Positions 5,449 through 13,332 of a DNA stretch of 34,327 nt are shown here, one piece after another (position 1 is the stretch's first letter; every line of letters starts with the position of its first letter). This stretch comes from an uncultured Clostridia bacterium (lineage in GTDB: Bacteria > Bacillota > Clostridia > Christensenellales > UBA1242). The notes under the pieces were generated by a model. That model was given only the letters and a program-made list of their open reading frames with translations. It had not been told where the DNA came from and searched no databases. Location of the stretch: the NCBI GenBank assembly GCA_944350225.1, contig CALVOH010000003.1, positions 1 through 34,327 on the forward strand. Direction: 5' to 3'. A program made the translations under genes and the position numbers.

Positions 5449-7029
5449 ATGAGAAAAGTTGATTTTAAAAATATGCCTTTAAACAAACTGTTTAATCTTC
5501 TTTCGGATGAAGATAAACAGATTGTGTCTTTATATGAAAATGTTCGTAATATCAATATTGATATAATTGATTTACCAATATTAAAAAAATATAAATGCTA
5601 TGCTTTCACAACTATTAGTCAAACTTTAAAAAGCATTCGGTCAAATTTGGTTACAGAAGCAAAACGTTCAAAAACCGATTTGAAAAAAGGCATATCGTCC
5701 ATAAAAAATCTGCAGAATCCTGTTGTCAAAGCAATAAGAAACAACAATCAACCTTTGGCGTGGTATTTAGTCAAAAAAAAATTATACAGTCCTGTGAAAC
5801 CTGATGAGATTTTTCCTTCACTTATCAATAACGCAAGCGATTTTATAGAAATAATTTTATATATGCCCTTAGAGAAAACAAAACGAAATGAACTTGCTAT
5901 ATATAGAATTTTAAAACGAATGATAAATAAGCCAGAAGATGAAAAGTTGTTATTGCAAGTATATGAAAAATTGAAAAAGACAAAATATTGTGACATCAAT
6001 CAATACTCTTCTTTTAACTGGATAAATTATCTTACTTCAAAAAGTGCCAATAAAGTTCATTTCCGAAAAGGCACCGCTAATCGTCATGTGCCACAAGAGA
6101 CTTATATGTTGCACGAAAGCATATTGACCTATCCCACAATCGTTCCATACCTATTAAAATTTAAAGATCTAGATGTTAACATAAAAAATAAGAGCAATAT
6201 TGAAGAACCTTCAGAATTTTCAGAATTAGAAAATCCTTCTCCTACAAATGGCAACTTGCCGATCATGCAACTTTTTAGATGGGCTGATTTAATTCATATA
6301 CTCAAACAACAGCATAATTATAAGTGTGGACTTGTTGGTATTTCTGATATGTATATAGATATTTTAGAAGAAATCTCAAAAAAGTATGATATAACAAAAT
6401 CAAATGAATATATTGATGAATTTATTAAACGCGGTGCTATACTAGACTATAAAAATGCAAATGGTGAAAGTGTTGTTATGACAGCGATTCACCACTACCA
6501 TGTACATGGAGTTGAAGTGTGCCGGCATCTTTTATACCCCGAAATTCTTCATGATATGGAAAAACTTAATGGGCATAGTTTATGGGCTGAACTTCCAGTA
6601 AAAATTTGTGAAATTTTATCTACAAAATTTCCATCAATGACAGATTCGTTGAACATCACATATTCTGAATATCTGTCAAACAAAACTGAGTATGATAGTC
6701 ACCTCCCAAAAGACAAAATGATTCATCCAGACTTTTTAATTGATTTAATTGACAAAATTCCTAAACTTAATCTGCTTTTAGAGCGTACGTCACATATATC
6801 TTATGATTATGAGAGAAAATTCGGAGAAGAAAGCCCTGAATATATAGGGTTTAATAACAAAGCCCAAGCAATATTAGAAAAATATGGAATAGATGATCAT
6901 TATTATTTTGACGCAGACGAGATTATAAATGCTGCAAGAAATGGATATCAAATCCAATCGCAAGGCATAGCAGAATATGAGAAATTTATCGAAGTTGAAG
7001 AAGAAAACCTTACTATAAAAACACCATAA
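5449..7029 (+). CDS. Hypothetical 526-aa protein with degenerate ankyrin-like repeats
   Basis: Long ORF. LLKFKDLDVNIKNK and FIKRGAILDYKNANGESVVMTAI resemble ankyrin repeats. The start was placed at M37 of the track ORF because of the promoter. Confidence 0.7.
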   Translation: MRKVDFKNMPLNKLFNLLSDEDKQIVSLYENVRNINIDIIDLPILKKYKCYAFTTISQTLKSIRSNLVTEAKRSKTDLKKGISSIKNLQNPVVKAIRNNNQPLAWYLVKKKLYSPVKPDEIFPSLINNASDFIEIILYMPLEKTKRNELAIYRILKRMINKPEDEKLLLQVYEKLKKTKYCDINQYSSFNWINYLTSKSANKVHFRKGTANRHVPQETYMLHESILTYPTIVPYLLKFKDLDVNIKNKSNIEEPSEFSELENPSPTNGNLPIMQLFRWADLIHILKQQHNYKCGLVGISDMYIDILEEISKKYDITKSNEYIDEFIKRGAILDYKNANGESVVMTAIHHYHVHGVEVCRHLLYPEILHDMEKLNGHSLWAELPVKICEILSTKFPSMTDSLNITYSEYLSNKTEYDSHLPKDKMIHPDFLIDLIDKIPKLNLLLERTSHISYDYERKFGEESPEYIGFNNKAQAILEKYGIDDHYYFDADEIINAARNGYQIQSQGIAEYEKFIEVEEENLTIKTP

Positions 7030-7102
7030 AAGAAGCAGAAGAAAAGCACCGATTTGAGGATATTCCTTTTTAAAAATTTTTAAATTAAATTTAATTTCAA
7101 AC

Positions 7103-7127
7103 AGCATATCAAACGATATGCTTTTTT
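7103..7127 (+). terminator. Intrinsic terminator
   Basis: AGCATATC-aaac-GATATGCT followed by a T run. Confidence 0.7.
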
Positions 7128-7184
7128 CTTATCCCTATAAAATTATGTATGTCTTTCCTCTTAAAATTTTAAAATATACTGCCC

Positions 7185-7355
7185 TTACTTGACATTAACT
7201 CGACCATGTCCCGCGTCAATTACAATAGTAAAGCTCTTTTGTGGAACGTTTGCATTGACGACCATAAGAACCGAACATAAATAAATTAATAGAAACAACA
7301 GCAATATTATAATACAAAACAAGATTTTTCTTTTCTTTATTATGACAAATTTCAT
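7185..7355 (-). pseudogene. Truncated cwlD-like amidase 5' fragment (56 aa)
   Basis: MKFVIIKKRKILF...QKSFTIVIDAGHGRVNVK* is collinear with the cwlD N-terminus (MKFLTIKKR...EYSIVIDAGHGG) and then stops. No alternative frame continues it. Confidence 0.85.
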
Positions 7356-7637
7356 ATAAATATTTTATTGAAACTCATATTTTATAGAACATCTTTTAAT
7401 TTTTAAAAAATTGTTTTATTTTAACTTTTAATAAGAAAAATTGTTATTATAAGAAGATGTAAAAAGTAGAAAGGCATAAATTGGATAAAATTATGTTGAC
7501 AAAAAACTACTACAAGATTAGAAATATTTATAAATTGATTATTGATATTTTTTAAATTAAATTATAAACACTTCTAATTATTAATTTAAGCATTGACAAA
7601 AAATACTTTATATGTTAGTCTTACAAAGAGGTAGTTT

Positions 7638-7961
7638 ATGAAAGATAAATTGAAAAATGAAGCTATTGAAGATCTAAAAAAAAATATTGGCATTCTTAAA
7701 GATTTAAAAACTGGTTGTGCAGTTTTGGGGCTTGCTTGTGGATGTATGGGTTTAATTTTTTCGGGGGTCGGAATTCTTGAAGGATCAATTGCTTGCAATA
7801 TTGGTCTCGCTGTTTTAATCCCTTCCTATGTTTCCGCTAAGGTTTCTCAATATCGTTTGGAAAAGATAAAAAAAGAATTGGAATCATCTACTAAAGAAGA
7901 ATTTGACATATTTGAAGAATACAATCTCACCGATGAAGACGATTTAAACAAAGACAGATAA
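7638..7961 (+). CDS. Hypothetical membrane protein (2 TM segments, acidic tail)
   Basis: GAGGT RBS, an upstream TTGACA and a hydrophobic hairpin. Confidence 0.7.
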   Translation: MKDKLKNEAIEDLKKNIGILKDLKTGCAVLGLACGCMGLIFSGVGILEGSIACNIGLAVLIPSYVSAKVSQYRLEKIKKELESSTKEEFDIFEEYNLTDEDDLNKDR

Positions 7962-7983
7962 AATATTTATTTAAGGAGTTAAA

Positions 7984-8169
7984 ATGAAAATTAAAGAACT
8001 TTTACGGAAGGTCGACAAAAAATTAAAAGAACTGCCACAAGAAAAATTGGCAGAAATAGAAAAAACAATCGATGAAGATATTGAAAAATTTTTTAGTTCT
8101 GAAGCAGAAGAAGATGATTTAACAATTCCAAAAGTTGTTGAAGAAAACTTTCCTTTTTTATTTAGATGA
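7984..8169 (+). CDS. Small hypothetical protein (61 aa)
   Basis: Strong AAGGAG RBS directly after the preceding gene. Confidence 0.65.
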   Translation: MKIKELLRKVDKKLKELPQEKLAEIEKTIDEDIEKFFSSEAEEDDLTIPKVVEENFPFLFR

Positions 8170-8178
8170 CAATTTTCT

Positions 8179-8207
8179 TTGACAAAAAATCTAAATTGTG
8201 ATAACAT
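8179..8207 (+). promoter_or_regulatory. SigA promoter of the leader-gatCAB-aspS transcript
   Basis: TTGACA(8179)-17 bp-TAACAT(8202) with an extended TG. Confidence 0.75.
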
Positions 8208-8224
8208 ATCTTTCGAGGTAAACA

Positions 8225-8281
8225 ATGTTTTTAAATCTTAATAACAATAATAATAATTTTAAACATCACATGAGTTTGTGA
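8225..8281 (+). CDS. Asn-rich attenuator leader peptide MFLNLNNNNNNFKHHMSL
   Basis: GAGGT SD at 8215-8219, ATG at 8225, 7 Asn codons (6 consecutive at 8240-8257) and TGA at 8279-8281. It lies upstream of the Asn-tRNA synthesis operon. Confidence 0.88.
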   Translation: MFLNLNNNNNNFKHHMSL

Positions 8282-8329
8282 ACTTTTGTTGTGTTGTTTA
8301 AATCACGGTTCACAAACCGTGATTTTTTT
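8258..8329 (+). promoter_or_regulatory. Transcription attenuator with protector, antiterminator and terminator helices
   Basis: 8258-8270 pairs with 8290-8302 (12 of 13 bp). GTTTGTGAAC 8274-8283 pairs with GTTCACAAAC 8308-8317 (10 of 10 bp). The terminator is 8300-8310 paired with 8315-8325, plus a T run. Confidence 0.87.
8300..8329 (+). terminator. Attenuator terminator
   Basis: AAATCACGGTT-caca-AACCGTGATTT, with T7 at 8323-8329. Confidence 0.88.
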
Positions 8330-8413
8330 GTTTATATTGATTTGAATTTGATTTGTTTTGTTGTATACTTATAAAAATAGATAGTTTACTGATTAAAAGG
8401 AAAATATAAATTT

Positions 8414-8689
8414 ATGGATTTAAAAGAAATTCAGCATCTGGCAGAACTTTCAAAATTAGAGTTTTCAAAAGAAGAACTTGAAAACTTTGCTTTGGATTTT
8501 GCTAGCCTTGTCAGTCTTGCTGATAAAATTAAAAACGCAAATGTAAAAAGCAATCGAGTTTTAAGTAGTATCGACTTAAAAGATTTGCGTGAGGATGATG
8601 TAAAAGAAAGCTTGCCAACAAAAACTGTTCTTAAAAATGCACCAGTTGCGAAAAAAGATAGTTTTGTTGTGCCAAGAGTTGTGGAGTAG
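8414..8689 (+). CDS. gatC: Asp/Glu-tRNA amidotransferase subunit C
   Basis: HLAELSKLEF, LREDDV and NAP...FVVPRVVE motifs, directly before gatA. Confidence 0.93.
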   Translation: MDLKEIQHLAELSKLEFSKEELENFALDFASLVSLADKIKNANVKSNRVLSSIDLKDLREDDVKESLPTKTVLKNAPVAKKDSFVVPRVVE

Positions 8690-8694
8690 AAAAC

Positions 8695-10116
8695 ATGGAA
8701 ATTACTAAACTTTCTGCAATAGAATTAAGAGATGAAATATTAAAAAGAAATCTTTCATGCTATGAAGTAGCAAAAGCATTTATTGACAATATAAAAAAAT
8801 ATGAGAGTTACAATGCTGTTTTGGAAATCTTTGATGACGCATTACAAAACGCAAAAGTAATGGACAAAAAAATTGCCGAAGGCTTTAATGGAAAACTCGC
8901 CGGCATGCCTGTTATAATAAAAGACAACATACTTTATCAAGACAAAATATGTAGCTGTGGTTCAAACTTTTTGAAAAACTATAAGGCAGAATACAATTCA
9001 ACTGTTGTAAAAAAATTAATTGATGAGGGAGCAATCATTCTTGGAAGAGCAAACATGGACGAATTTGCTATGGGTAGTTCAACAGAAAACTCCGCTTTTG
9101 GTATAACTCACAATCCTATCGCTTTTGACCGTGTGCCAGGTGGTTCGTCTGGCGGTAGCGCGTGTGCTGTTGCACTTGACATGTGCCCTATTTCTTTAGG
9201 CACAGAAACAGGAGGAAGTGTTAGACAACCAGCAAGCTATTGTGGTATTTACGGATTAAAACCTACCTATGGCAGAATTTCCAGATATGGAGTGGTCGCT
9301 TTTGCTAGTTCTCTTGACCAAGTCGGCATTTTTTCGAAAACGATTGAGGACAATGCTTTGATGTTAGAAGTTTTAGCTGGATATGACGAAAACGACGAAA
9401 CGAGCGCAAAAGTCAAAGTTGATAATTATACAAATCTTGATGATGCAATCAAGACAAAAATTGGTGTGCCTATTGAAATATTAAACATGACAAAAGGACT
9501 AGAATGCGAAAAGAACTTTAAAAACTTTATCGAATTTTTAAAACAACTAAATTTGGAAATTGTCCCTGTTTCAATTAAAAACATCGAGCTGGCATTAGCG
9601 ACTTATTATATTCTCGCTCCTGCTGAGGCGACAAGCAATTTGGCAAGATTTGATGGTGTAAAATACACTTCACGTAGCTTAGCTGCAAAAAACCTACAAG
9701 AGATTTACAAACAGAGCCGAAGCCAAGGTTTTGGCAAAGAAGTGAAAAGAAGAATTATGCTGGGAAACTATGTGCTGTCTTCTGGATATTATGATGCATA
9801 CTACAACAAAGCTAAAAGTGTGCAAGGATTGCTGATCGAACAATGCAATGAAGCTTTTAAAAAGTGTGATGTTTTAGTTATGCCTACAACTTTAGGCGAA
9901 GCTTACAAAATTGGAAGTAAACCTAGTGACCCTGTTGAAACCTACAAAGAAGATGTTTTCACGGTTACCGCAAATATCGTAGGCTCTCCTTCCCTTTCCA
10001 TACCTTTTGGGAAGGGCAAAAACAACTTACCTCTTGGAATACAACTATTTGGCAAAAAGTTTGATGAAAAAACGATTTACAGTTTAGCAAAATTTATACA
10101 AAACAACATAAAATAG
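8695..10116 (+). CDS. gatA: Asp/Glu-tRNA amidotransferase subunit A
   Basis: IKDNI, NMDEFAMGSS, PGGSSGGS, GGSVRQPA, SNLARFDG and EVKRRIMLG. Confidence 0.97.
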   Translation: MEITKLSAIELRDEILKRNLSCYEVAKAFIDNIKKYESYNAVLEIFDDALQNAKVMDKKIAEGFNGKLAGMPVIIKDNILYQDKICSCGSNFLKNYKAEYNSTVVKKLIDEGAIILGRANMDEFAMGSSTENSAFGITHNPIAFDRVPGGSSGGSACAVALDMCPISLGTETGGSVRQPASYCGIYGLKPTYGRISRYGVVAFASSLDQVGIFSKTIEDNALMLEVLAGYDENDETSAKVKVDNYTNLDDAIKTKIGVPIEILNMTKGLECEKNFKNFIEFLKQLNLEIVPVSIKNIELALATYYILAPAEATSNLARFDGVKYTSRSLAAKNLQEIYKQSRSQGFGKEVKRRIMLGNYVLSSGYYDAYYNKAKSVQGLLIEQCNEAFKKCDVLVMPTTLGEAYKIGSKPSDPVETYKEDVFTVTANIVGSPSLSIPFGKGKNNLPLGIQLFGKKFDEKTIYSLAKFIQNNIK

Positions 10117-10126
10117 GAGTCTTTTT

Positions 10127-11542
10127 ATGCAATATGACGTCATTATAGGTCTAGAAGTTCATGCAGAATTAAAAACGAAAAGCAAATGCTTTTGTTCGTG
10201 CAAAAACGAATATGGCTCATCACCAAACAGTAACTGTTGCCCGGTGTGTGTGGGCTTGCCTGGGGCTTTGCCTATCCTTAATAAATACGCCGTAGAACAA
10301 ACTATAAAGGCAGGGCTAGCACTTGGCTTTGAAATCAATAAAACTGCTATATTTGAACGAAAAAATTATTTTTATCCAGATCTCGCAAAAGCTTATCAAA
10401 TCAGCCAATTAGAAAAGCCTATTTGCATAAATGGACATTTAAAGGTTTTTGACAAGCAAATTCCAATTAATAGAATACACCTTGAGGAAGACGCGGGAAA
10501 GCTTGTACATGAAGGAAAGGAAACTTTTGTCGACTACAATCGTGGTGGTGTTCCACTTATCGAACTAGTAACGGACGCTTTAAAAGAACCTCATATGGAA
10601 ACAGCTGATGAGGCGATTGAGTTTTTAACTAAATTAAGACAAATTTACGTCTACGCTGGAATTGCAGACTGCGAACTAGAAAAAGGTCAAATGCGTGCAG
10701 ACGTAAACATTTCACTTAAACCAAAGGGTAGCGATAAATATGGTACAAAAGTTGAAATGAAAAATCTTATGGGTTTTAAATCTATTTATAGTGCTATAAA
10801 TTATGAAATTGCAAGACAAAAAGAAATTCTCGACGATGGTGGTGTGGTAGAACAAGAAACTCGAAAGTGGGATTTTGACAAAGGCGAAAGTTATACAATG
10901 CGCACAAAAGAAAACGCAGAAGATTACAGATATTTTCCTGATCCAGACTTGCTTGCTGTAAACATAAGCAATGAAGACATTGAAAGAATAAGAAAGCAGT
11001 TGCCTCCTCTTCCAGACGAGATTAAGGAAAAATATATCACACAATACGGGCTTAGCGAATATGACACAGACGTCATCTTGGCAGACAAGAAAATAGCAGA
11101 TTTCTATGAAGAATGCATTCTTGAATACGACAAGCCAAAAACAGTAGCAAACTGGTTTACAACCGAAATCCTTGCTAGAATCAAAGGAGGCGCTGGACTT
11201 GGCATCTCAAAAGAAAATCTCGTTTGGATTATACGTGCCGTTGACGATAAAAAAATTCAGCGTCTTACAGCAAAGGAATTTTTGGCTGACATCTGGAGCA
11301 AAAACGTCGATGCAGAAGCAGAAGCAAAAAAACGTGGAATAATGGCAGACTTATCTTCCGACTTTGTATTCAGCATTTTAGACAAGGTTTTACAAGAGAA
11401 AAATGAAGTCGTGACGCAATATAAAAACGAAAAAGATGAAAAGATTTTAAACTTTTTGGTAGGACAAGTCATGAAAGAAACAAAAGGCAAAGCCAATGCC
11501 CAAGAAGTTAAAGAAAAACTAAAAGAAAAATTAAGTGATTAA
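10127..11542 (+). CDS. gatB: Asp/Glu-tRNA amidotransferase subunit B
   Basis: IGLEVHAEL, RKNYFYPDL, HLEEDAGK, DYNRGGVPLIE and YRYFPDPDL. Confidence 0.97.
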   Translation: MQYDVIIGLEVHAELKTKSKCFCSCKNEYGSSPNSNCCPVCVGLPGALPILNKYAVEQTIKAGLALGFEINKTAIFERKNYFYPDLAKAYQISQLEKPICINGHLKVFDKQIPINRIHLEEDAGKLVHEGKETFVDYNRGGVPLIELVTDALKEPHMETADEAIEFLTKLRQIYVYAGIADCELEKGQMRADVNISLKPKGSDKYGTKVEMKNLMGFKSIYSAINYEIARQKEILDDGGVVEQETRKWDFDKGESYTMRTKENAEDYRYFPDPDLLAVNISNEDIERIRKQLPPLPDEIKEKYITQYGLSEYDTDVILADKKIADFYEECILEYDKPKTVANWFTTEILARIKGGAGLGISKENLVWIIRAVDDKKIQRLTAKEFLADIWSKNVDAEAEAKKRGIMADLSSDFVFSILDKVLQEKNEVVTQYKNEKDEKILNFLVGQVMKETKGKANAQEVKEKLKEKLSD

Positions 11543-13300: not shown

Positions 13301-13332
13301 AAAAAGAAAGTCAAACAGACTTTCTTTTTTTT
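13301..13332 (+). terminator. Intrinsic terminator of gatCAB-aspS
   Basis: AAAAAGAAAGTC-aaaca-GACTTTCTTTTT followed by more T. Confidence 0.85.

Follow-up and report, generated by a model that had tools for sequence, protein, structure and literature searches.

A candidate asparagine-sensing leader peptide upstream of gatCAB-aspS and its alternation with T-boxes in a genus of gut Clostridia

The region upstream of gatCAB-aspS, which encodes the tRNA amidotransferase GatCAB and an aspartyl-tRNA synthetase (AspRS), was analysed in a stretch of 34,327 nucleotides (nt) of contig CALVOH010000003.1 from an uncultured Clostridia bacterium (assembly GCA_944350225.1; "the window" hereafter denotes this whole stretch). 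We conclude, with a probability of about 0.85, that the leader at 8179-8329 is a ribosome-mediated transcription attenuator of the trp/his type, in which a short peptide rich in asparagine (Asn) codons would report on the supply of Asn-tRNA(Asn). An earlier note, made from the sequence alone, had proposed such an attenuator in place of the T-box that is usual for these genes, and the comparative data favour this proposal: an Asn-rich leader was found at 27 of 57 evaluable loci of the genus and a T-box at 24 of the 57, the asnA genes of the genus are preceded by such a leader in 13 of 13 cases, and the antiterminator covaries.

Leader anatomy and covariation of the antiterminator

The promoter, Shine-Dalgarno (SD) sequence, 18-codon open reading frame (ORF), run of six Asn codons and terminator that had been predicted from the sequence are all present, and the leader features were confirmed at the following positions of the window.

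8179..8207, + strand: promoter P1, consisting of the -35 hexamer TTGACA (8179-8184), a 17-nt spacer, an extended -10 TG (8199-8200) and TAACAT (8202-8207); score 10/12, TG present
8216..8219, + strand: leader SD sequence GAGG, 5 nt upstream of the ATG
8225..8281, + strand: leader ORF MFLNLNNNNNNFKHHMSL, 18 codons from the ATG at 8225, followed by TGA (8279-8281)
8240..8257, + strand: six successive Asn codons AAT AAC AAT AAT AAT AAT, the proposed stalling site
8266..8281, + strand: small hairpin TCACA (8266-8270) : TGTGA (8277-8281) in the consensus fold of five relatives; candidate anti-antiterminator (segment 1:2)
8274..8284, + strand: antiterminator 5' strand GTTTGTGAACT, which pairs with 8307-8317 and has the leader stop codon (8279-8281) inside it
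8285..8299, + strand: U/G-rich tract CTTTTGTTGTGTTGT, able to base-pair with the run of Asn codons (~8244-8257) when the leader is not translated, according to the consensus fold and alignment A1
8300..8329, + strand: intrinsic terminator, stem 8300-8310:8315-8325 with loop CACA, then a T run to 8329

P1 is retained in all five close relatives aligned, with TTGAC(A/T), the 17-nt spacer and TGnTAnnAT kept throughout. A seventh Asn codon at 8234-8236 brings the total to 7 of the 18 leader codons. Runs of at least five AAY triplets (AAT or AAC) occur three times in the whole 831,551-bp genome when both strands are counted, and of these only that at 8240-8257 lies within a short frame having a start codon. 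That the region is a chance arrangement of a short ORF and a terminator in an AT-rich intergenic region is an explanation to which we give next to no weight: promoter- and terminator-like matches are common in a genome of 34% G+C, and 32 promoter-like sites were counted against 23.9 expected, yet chance accounts neither for so rare a codon run nor for the retention of the element, with covarying helices, at 27 gatCAB and 13 asnA loci of the genus.

The terminator (AAATCACGGTT-CACA-AACCGTGATTT, 8300-8325) comprises 11 pairs, its hairpin alone amounting to -11.6 kcal/mol, and its 5' arm and loop (8307-8317) double as the 3' strand of the antiterminator. As predicted, GTTTGTGAAC (8274-8283) is the perfect complement of GTTCACAAAC (8308-8317) and contains the leader stop codon in its 5' strand; the helix is extended by one added G-U pair to 11 bp (8274-8284 : 8307-8317, -15.0 kcal/mol), an energy reached by none of 200 shuffles of the upstream strand. 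The fold of the 128-nt leader has a z of -3.0 relative to shuffles, the TCACA:TGTGA hairpin sequesters part of the antiterminator strand, and the motif CTTTTG..GTTG of the U/G-rich tract is kept throughout the family. The expected lack of a T-box was borne out, as an Rfam search of positions 7000-9500 with E values up to 10 returned neither a T-box nor any curated leader family, but only six chance-level matches; the leader families curated in Rfam include the His, Thr, Leu and Trp leaders.

For comparison across the genus, 154 genomes were sampled, 63 of which carry gatB; 62 loci other than that of the window were oriented by tblastn and six of these (L027, L041, L053, L061, L070, L080) were left out because they lie too near a contig end, leaving 57 evaluable loci including the window. 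All 27 gatCAB leaders have, 17-41 nt 3' of the leader stop codon, a terminator hairpin (-10.4 to -21.8 kcal/mol) that leads into a T run, and the same distance holds for the terminator in 13 of 13 asnA leaders. The strand 3' of the last Asn codon pairs with the 5' arm and loop of the terminator in all 27 gatCAB leaders, beginning at a distance of 11-26 nt from it in 24 cases (read by eye), with antiterminator energies of -11.9 to -25.3 kcal/mol and a mean z of -3.6 against shuffles. The observed energy was matched by at most 10 of 200 shuffles in 26 of the 27 leaders and by none in 13, and the leader stop codon lies within or beside the antiterminator strand in every leader (-24 to +28 nt).

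An alignment-free covariation test, in which every upstream strand was paired with every terminator over 23 non-redundant loci, gave a mean of -16.9 kcal/mol for cognate pairs versus -10.7 for non-cognate ones, a difference for which none of 10,000 permutations was as low; the cognate pair ranked within the top three at 13 of the 23 loci. The antiterminator strands hence covary with their own terminators, which can also be followed by eye in the clade of the window, where the core helix GTGAAC:GTTCAC is replaced by GGACCT:AGGTCC, GAGCCT:AGGCTC and GTGCCT:GGGCAC. Of the features that the earlier note had wished to see in relatives, a conserved Asn-rich upstream ORF (uORF) and a covarying antiterminator helix were found in this survey.

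Leader peptides and T-boxes across the genus

Upstream of the first gene, 27 of the 57 loci carry an Asn-rich uORF starting with ATG and a terminator, 24 a T-box and six neither, all six of the latter having the gatCAB-only gene order. Four gene orders occur, and the leader was found in each of them: in 10 of 11 gatCAB-aspS loci (the exception, L078, carries a T-box), in 2 of 9 aspS-gatCAB loci, in 14 of 30 loci in which an archaeal-type aspartate-tRNA(Asn) ligase (NF003483, above cut-off) is followed by gatCAB, and in 1 of 7 loci with gatCAB alone. Leader conservation follows function, not gene order. The encoded peptides contain 4-10 Asn with runs of up to 9; an in-frame ATG is present in 27 of 27 gatCAB and 13 of 13 asnA leaders, and an SD-like purine tract precedes it in 26 of the 27 gatCAB leaders (read by eye), L067 being the one without an obvious SD sequence.

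The T-boxes at the 24 sister loci all score above the Rfam gathering score, at 116-150 bits (RF00230). Their specifier position is AAC (Asn) in the three alignments examined, and visual inspection showed the context GAA-n-AAC-A at four further loci; the site of the leader peptide is thus taken there by an established sensor of uncharged tRNA(Asn). In the genome of the window itself, four T-box matches were recorded elsewhere, one of them above the gathering score (C43:6787-7015, C2:34200-34376, C46:764-917, C29:465-580), which suggests that the organism still uses T-boxes for other genes and a leader peptide for Asn. A further genome of the genus (G013) carries two identical copies of its aspS-gatCAB locus and Asn leader, on contigs C7 and C39 (L004/L014, L016/L020), reflecting either duplication or assembly redundancy.

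A pattern search returned two leaders in genomes without gatB, and the gene downstream was asnA (TIGR00669, 327.7 bits). This gene is present in 13 of the 154 genus genomes and is preceded by an Asn leader and terminator in 13 of 13, from which it appears that the element tracks asparagine supply rather than one operon. Alignment of 36 non-identical leaders (A1) revealed a shared layout of SD sequence and ATG, AAY run, a CACAT-like word, GGGTTYC-TTTTG-GTTG, a variable spacer and the terminator, with GTGAAC-TTTTG-TTG as the conserved strand in the clade of the window; this common order of parts shows that the leaders form one homologous family. Some groups have the conserved strand within the ORF and others have it past the stop codon, so that this is conservation at the RNA level.

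Beyond the genus, a sequence-only model (R1) was used with stricter filters to search 151 genomes of the order, namely 146 of other genera, four other genomes of the genus and that of the window, with one other genome of the same family among those drawn. The model recovered the window and gave no convincing leader in the 146 genomes of other genera or in the four further genus genomes drawn. Four weak matches outside the genus (E 2e-4 to 6e-4) were rejected as ordinary gene-end or leader terminators that have no Asn uORF. A scan of named metagenome-assembled genome (MAG) records gave 32 loci, of which 30 were examined (L103-L132) and two archaeal records (L133, L134) left out. Asn-rich uORFs were present at 21 of the 30, eight of the 21 being loci already in the genus count; among the 13 further gatCAB-aspS loci, eight (L105-L111, L113) have a clear Asn leader, terminator and antiterminator. 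Two loci, L119 and L121, have plausible Asn leaders, the automatic terminator search found none at L120, L122 and L125, and no SD sequence was seen at L119-L122 and L125.

The asnA loci show additional features. Several asnA leaders (L089-L091, L093, L097, L087) carry two tandem terminator-like hairpins after the Asn uORF, for example CACTCTCTTGAAAnnCAAGAGAGTG, then GCACACTCTC...GTGTGC and a T run. At 13 of 13 asnA loci (L087-L097, L083, L084), the stretch separating the Asn attenuator from asnA holds a second conserved small ORF, which encodes M-K-K-x-N-A-V-A-G-E/D and an acidic tail rich in Asn (e.g. L087 oriented 602-655, L090 oriented 620-694). The changes in its core AATGCCGTAGCGGGCGA are synonymous (AAT/AAC, GCG/GCT), which points to conservation at the peptide level. 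A hairpin TTTAAGGAG...CTCCTTAAA follows this ORF at most asnA loci, and its 3' strand could pair with the asnA ribosome-binding site TTTAAGGAG; ORF and hairpin together may form a second layer of control, translational or mediated by the nascent peptide. NA[VL][AL]GE-like uORFs are also present at two aspS-gatCAB loci (L052 oriented ~2015-2160; L060), and the window has none.

Proposed switching and the internal promoter

Transcription would start at P1, with the 18-codon leader being translated while RNA polymerase advances. When Asn-tRNA(Asn) is scarce, the ribosome would stall on the six Asn codons (8240-8257) with its footprint reaching to about 8270. The Asn run would thereby be separated from the U/G tract and TCACA would be covered, so that GTTTGTGAACT (8274-8284) would be left free. 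Once made, the 5' arm and loop of the terminator (8307-8317) would then be captured by this strand, no terminator would form and gatCAB-aspS would be transcribed. With plentiful Asn-tRNA(Asn), the ribosome would reach the TGA inside the antiterminator strand and mask that strand, leading to formation of the terminator and a stop near 8329, while an untranslated leader would fold on itself and terminate. Since no asnS, asnA or asnB was found above cut-off in the genome, the sensed molecule would be what the operon itself provides, Asn-tRNA(Asn) formed through AspRS and GatCAB, and the proposal of the earlier note to this effect fits the gene content.

Folding with an imposed ribosome footprint, as the earlier note had recommended, agrees with this scheme. 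The footprint covered 29 nt and extended 15 nt upstream and 13 nt downstream of the first nucleotide of the codon in the A site, the transcripts were cut just before the 3' arm of the terminator, and the probability that the 5' arm is paired upstream served as the measure; neither these folds nor those of full-length transcripts represent kinetics.

Ribosome on Asn codons: mean 0.71 over 27 leaders; window 0.76 (last Asn codon)
Ribosome at stop codon: mean 0.38 over 27 leaders; window 0.27
No ribosome: mean 0.66 over 27 leaders; window 0.35

Upstream pairing of the 5' arm was higher for the stalled ribosome than for the one at the stop codon in 23 of the 27 leaders, and in these models the window thus shows the three-state behaviour proposed earlier. 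In full-length equilibrium folds of minimum free energy, the terminator was present in 24 of 27 free leaders and in 27 of 27 with the ribosome at the stop codon.

The genes that would be controlled, and a second candidate promoter that precedes them, lie as follows.

8342..8369, + strand: putative internal promoter P2, TTGAAT (8342-8347), 16-nt spacer, TATACT (8364-8369); score 9/12; 3' of the terminator
8414..8689, + strand: gatC, TIGR00135, 62.8 bits versus a cut-off of 47.1
8695..10116, + strand: gatA, TIGR00132, 577 bits, above cut-off
10127..11542, + strand: gatB, NF004014, 566 bits, above cut-off; single match in the genome
11535..13286, + strand: aspS, bacterial type, operon copy, NF001750, 734 bits, above cut-off
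13301..13329, + strand: operon-end terminator, 12 pairs, then a T run

All four genes named in the earlier note hence score above their NCBIfam cut-offs. Directly 5' of P1, on the same strand, lie two small ORFs, 7638-7961 (107 aa) and 7984-8169 (61 aa), which have no NCBIfam match; the product of the shorter one is rich in Glu and Lys.

The assembly comprises 831,551 bp in 69 contigs and is 96% complete, and family searches of it gave no asnS, asnA, asnB or glnS above cut-off, which means that these genes were not found rather than that they are proven absent. The best asnS-like matches are lysS and the two aspS genes and nothing else, and the glnS-like match is gltX. The genome has one gatB, one gltX and two aspS genes, the second, also of bacterial type, being split over a contig break (C4 to C57). 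Taken at face value, this gene content would have Asn-tRNA(Asn) made solely via AspRS and GatCAB, which would imply a non-discriminating operon AspRS. The indirect, amidation-based pathways for Asn-tRNA(Asn) and Gln-tRNA(Gln) are established; because no glnS was found and gatB is single, formation of Gln-tRNA(Gln) probably depends on GatCAB as well. For several near-complete genomes of the genus (99-100%; e.g. G006, G023, G016, G064, G080) the family searches gave no gatB and no glnS, and such genomes may have a divergent GlnRS or have been missed by the first pass of the search.

The possible second promoter pointed out in the earlier note (TTGAAT at 8342, TATACT at 8364) has its hexamers kept in all five closest relatives, whose aligned spacers carry a -35-like TTGAAT, TTGATT or TTGTTT and a -10 TATACT or TATAAT. 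Because of this conservation, P2 is probably part of the design and not incidental; it probably supplies basal expression and would thereby cover the basal need of GatCAB for Gln-tRNA(Gln). The gap between terminator and gatC measures 75-89 nt in the five closest leaders (window, L077, L074, L072, L071) and 23-25 nt in the other five gatCAB-aspS leaders. Among the glnS family matches across the genus, none came from the five long-spacer genomes, and four of the five short-spacer genomes (G099, G084, G024, G108; not G115) were represented. As the genomes are relatives, this distribution is a hint only that the putative P2 provides GatCAB independently of Asn in genomes whose Gln-tRNA(Gln) likewise has to come from this enzyme.

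Conservation of P2 would equally be expected if gatCAB-aspS were expressed essentially from this promoter, with P1, leader and terminator constituting a separate gene for a small RNA or small peptide or serving to end upstream transcription, and the strength of the terminator, which is hard to displace in equilibrium folds of the nearest relatives, would suit this explanation as well. We nevertheless regard it as quite improbable: most other leaders have 8-41 nt between the end of the terminator and the start of the first gene, which is too little for a second promoter, so that the attenuator must control the genes at those loci, and a free-standing small RNA fails to explain the exclusive linkage to Asn-supply genes or the exchange with T-boxes.

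Several observations weigh against attenuation by Asn-codon translation as set out above. In the full-length equilibrium folds, a ribosome stalled on Asn codons abolished the terminator in just 10 of the 27 leaders; in the window only a stall at the final Asn codon had this effect, and in L077 and L074, the nearest relatives, no stall position on the Asn codons did. With equilibrium folds switching in so few leaders, the models imply that the decision must be kinetic, as in classical systems. The genomes of the genus are related and not independent, so that the counts over the 57 loci overstate the support, and at 96% completeness the missing asnS and glnS count as not found, not as absent. 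If GatCAB is the sole route to Gln-tRNA(Gln), control by Asn only would carry a risk if P2, which is a consensus match only, did not function.

The protecting (1:2) helix is a further point of this kind. The earlier note had paired 8258-8270 with 8290-8302, and 12 of 13 pairs can indeed form there in the window (read by eye), but the register is not that of the consensus fold of the five closest leaders, in which the Asn-codon run (~8244-8257) pairs with the U/G tract (~8285-8298) and encloses TCACA:TGTGA; either arrangement would be melted by a stalled ribosome. A counterpart of the small helix, AAC[A/G]CAT with ATGGGTT, can be traced family-wide, being paired in 74.9% of cells versus 14-50% when the partner is slid, yet shuffles reach 72.0%. 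Covariation of the 1:2 helix on A1 is weak, with changes on both sides in five cells and a score reached by 56 of 500 shuffles, and no claim is made here for this helix. Because the untranslated, truncated RNA already prefers the antiterminator in most leaders (mean 0.66 in the folds), a trp-like 1:2 protector is, according to the models, not general.

The AAY run could also act as an RNA strand that pairs with the U/G tract, and for this reason the synonymous AAT/AAC changes are no proof of translation. A real terminator-antiterminator switch might then be driven by something other than Asn-codon translation, with a protein, tRNA or small molecule binding the AAY run and GGGTTYC-TTTTG and with the ORF being incidental or secondary. 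Such a switch would be compatible with AAT/AAC changes that preserve the pairing, with an antiterminator motif that is kept as nucleotides whether inside the ORF or after it, and with the leader (L067) that has no obvious SD sequence. We consider it unlikely, although a little less so than expression from P2, since it leaves the in-frame ATG of every gatCAB and asnA leader, the SD-like tracts in 26 of 27 gatCAB leaders and the constant position of the stop codon within or beside the antiterminator strand without explanation; in addition, every regulated gene serves the supply of Asn or of Asn-tRNA, where another leader takes this position it is a T-box with an Asn codon, and no Rfam family was matched. 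Attenuation through translation of the Asn codons is therefore the reading that we retain.

Relation to known regulatory systems

A wider synthesis, which we hold tentatively and rate slightly below even odds, would see in the window the founding case of an undescribed family of Asn-sensing leaders, which has been swapped repeatedly with Asn T-boxes within one genus of small-genome gut Clostridia before every asparagine route (gatCAB-aspS in three gene orders, and asnA). Here the attenuator would read only the output of its own enzymes, and the conserved promoter behind the terminator would keep GatCAB available for Gln-tRNA(Gln), amounting to a two-promoter split control of one bifunctional enzyme; the second M-K-K-x-N-A-V-A-G-E uORF of asnA and some aspS loci would hint at further control through the nascent peptide or Asn codons. 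If correct, the attenuator would add a new amino-acid specificity to leader-peptide attenuation and provide a case in which the sensed charged tRNA is made only by the regulated enzymes. The replacement of T-box and leader peptide by each other at the same genes in one genus would be a natural experiment that aids the study of RNA-sensor turnover, and an Asn-run uORF followed by a terminator could serve as a signature for annotating Asn-supply genes in uncultured gut Clostridia.

The classical leader-peptide attenuators are trpL, hisL, leuL, thrL, pheL and ilvL of Proteobacteria, and the textbook specificities are Trp, His, Leu, Thr, Phe and Ile/Val, plus a few others. Like these systems, the element described here has a short translated leader (as proposed) in which codons for the regulating amino acid follow one another, an antiterminator and a terminator hairpin that exclude each other, and a stop codon placed such that a finishing ribosome would mask the antiterminator. 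It differs from them in its Asn specificity, in its targets, which are a tRNA amidotransferase and a synthetase (and asnA in relatives) rather than a classical biosynthetic operon, in its host, a gut bacterium of the class Clostridia, in having no Rfam or sequence similarity to them, and in a 1:2 protector that is not clearly conserved.

A functional counterpart is the Asn T-box of aspS-gatCAB, which was reportedly identified in Clostridium acetobutylicum in a biochemical study by Saad et al. 2012 (J Biol Chem). Genes, signal (charging of tRNA(Asn)), position and the choice between terminator and antiterminator would be the same, and T-boxes occupy 24 of the 57 sister loci. In contrast to the leader peptide, a T-box acts independently of translation, through direct binding of uncharged tRNA, and the window has no T-box match. 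A full-text literature search, with most subscription journals and supplements outside its scope, returned no Asn leader-peptide attenuator and none for gatCAB or tRNA-dependent amidation.

One of the three aspS genes of C. acetobutylicum is described as T-box regulated (PMC2494555). The nearest precedent found for the exchange of sensors comes from Bacilli, where, according to Naville and Gautheret (2010, PMC2965389), His leader peptides upstream of hisS paralogues and hisZ act as a "regular" attenuator in place of a T-box, and switching of sensing systems at syntenic positions is described explicitly. Both cases have in common a Firmicutes leader peptide that substitutes for a T-box before an aminoacyl-tRNA synthetase-type gene; the present one differs in its specificity for Asn instead of His, in its genes and in its lineage, and in that T-box and leader peptide alternate here among species of one genus, over four gene orders and asnA. 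Thus, within the literature searched, the Asn specificity and the gatCAB-aspS and asnA targets appear to be new for leader-peptide attenuation, while the mechanism itself is the known one.

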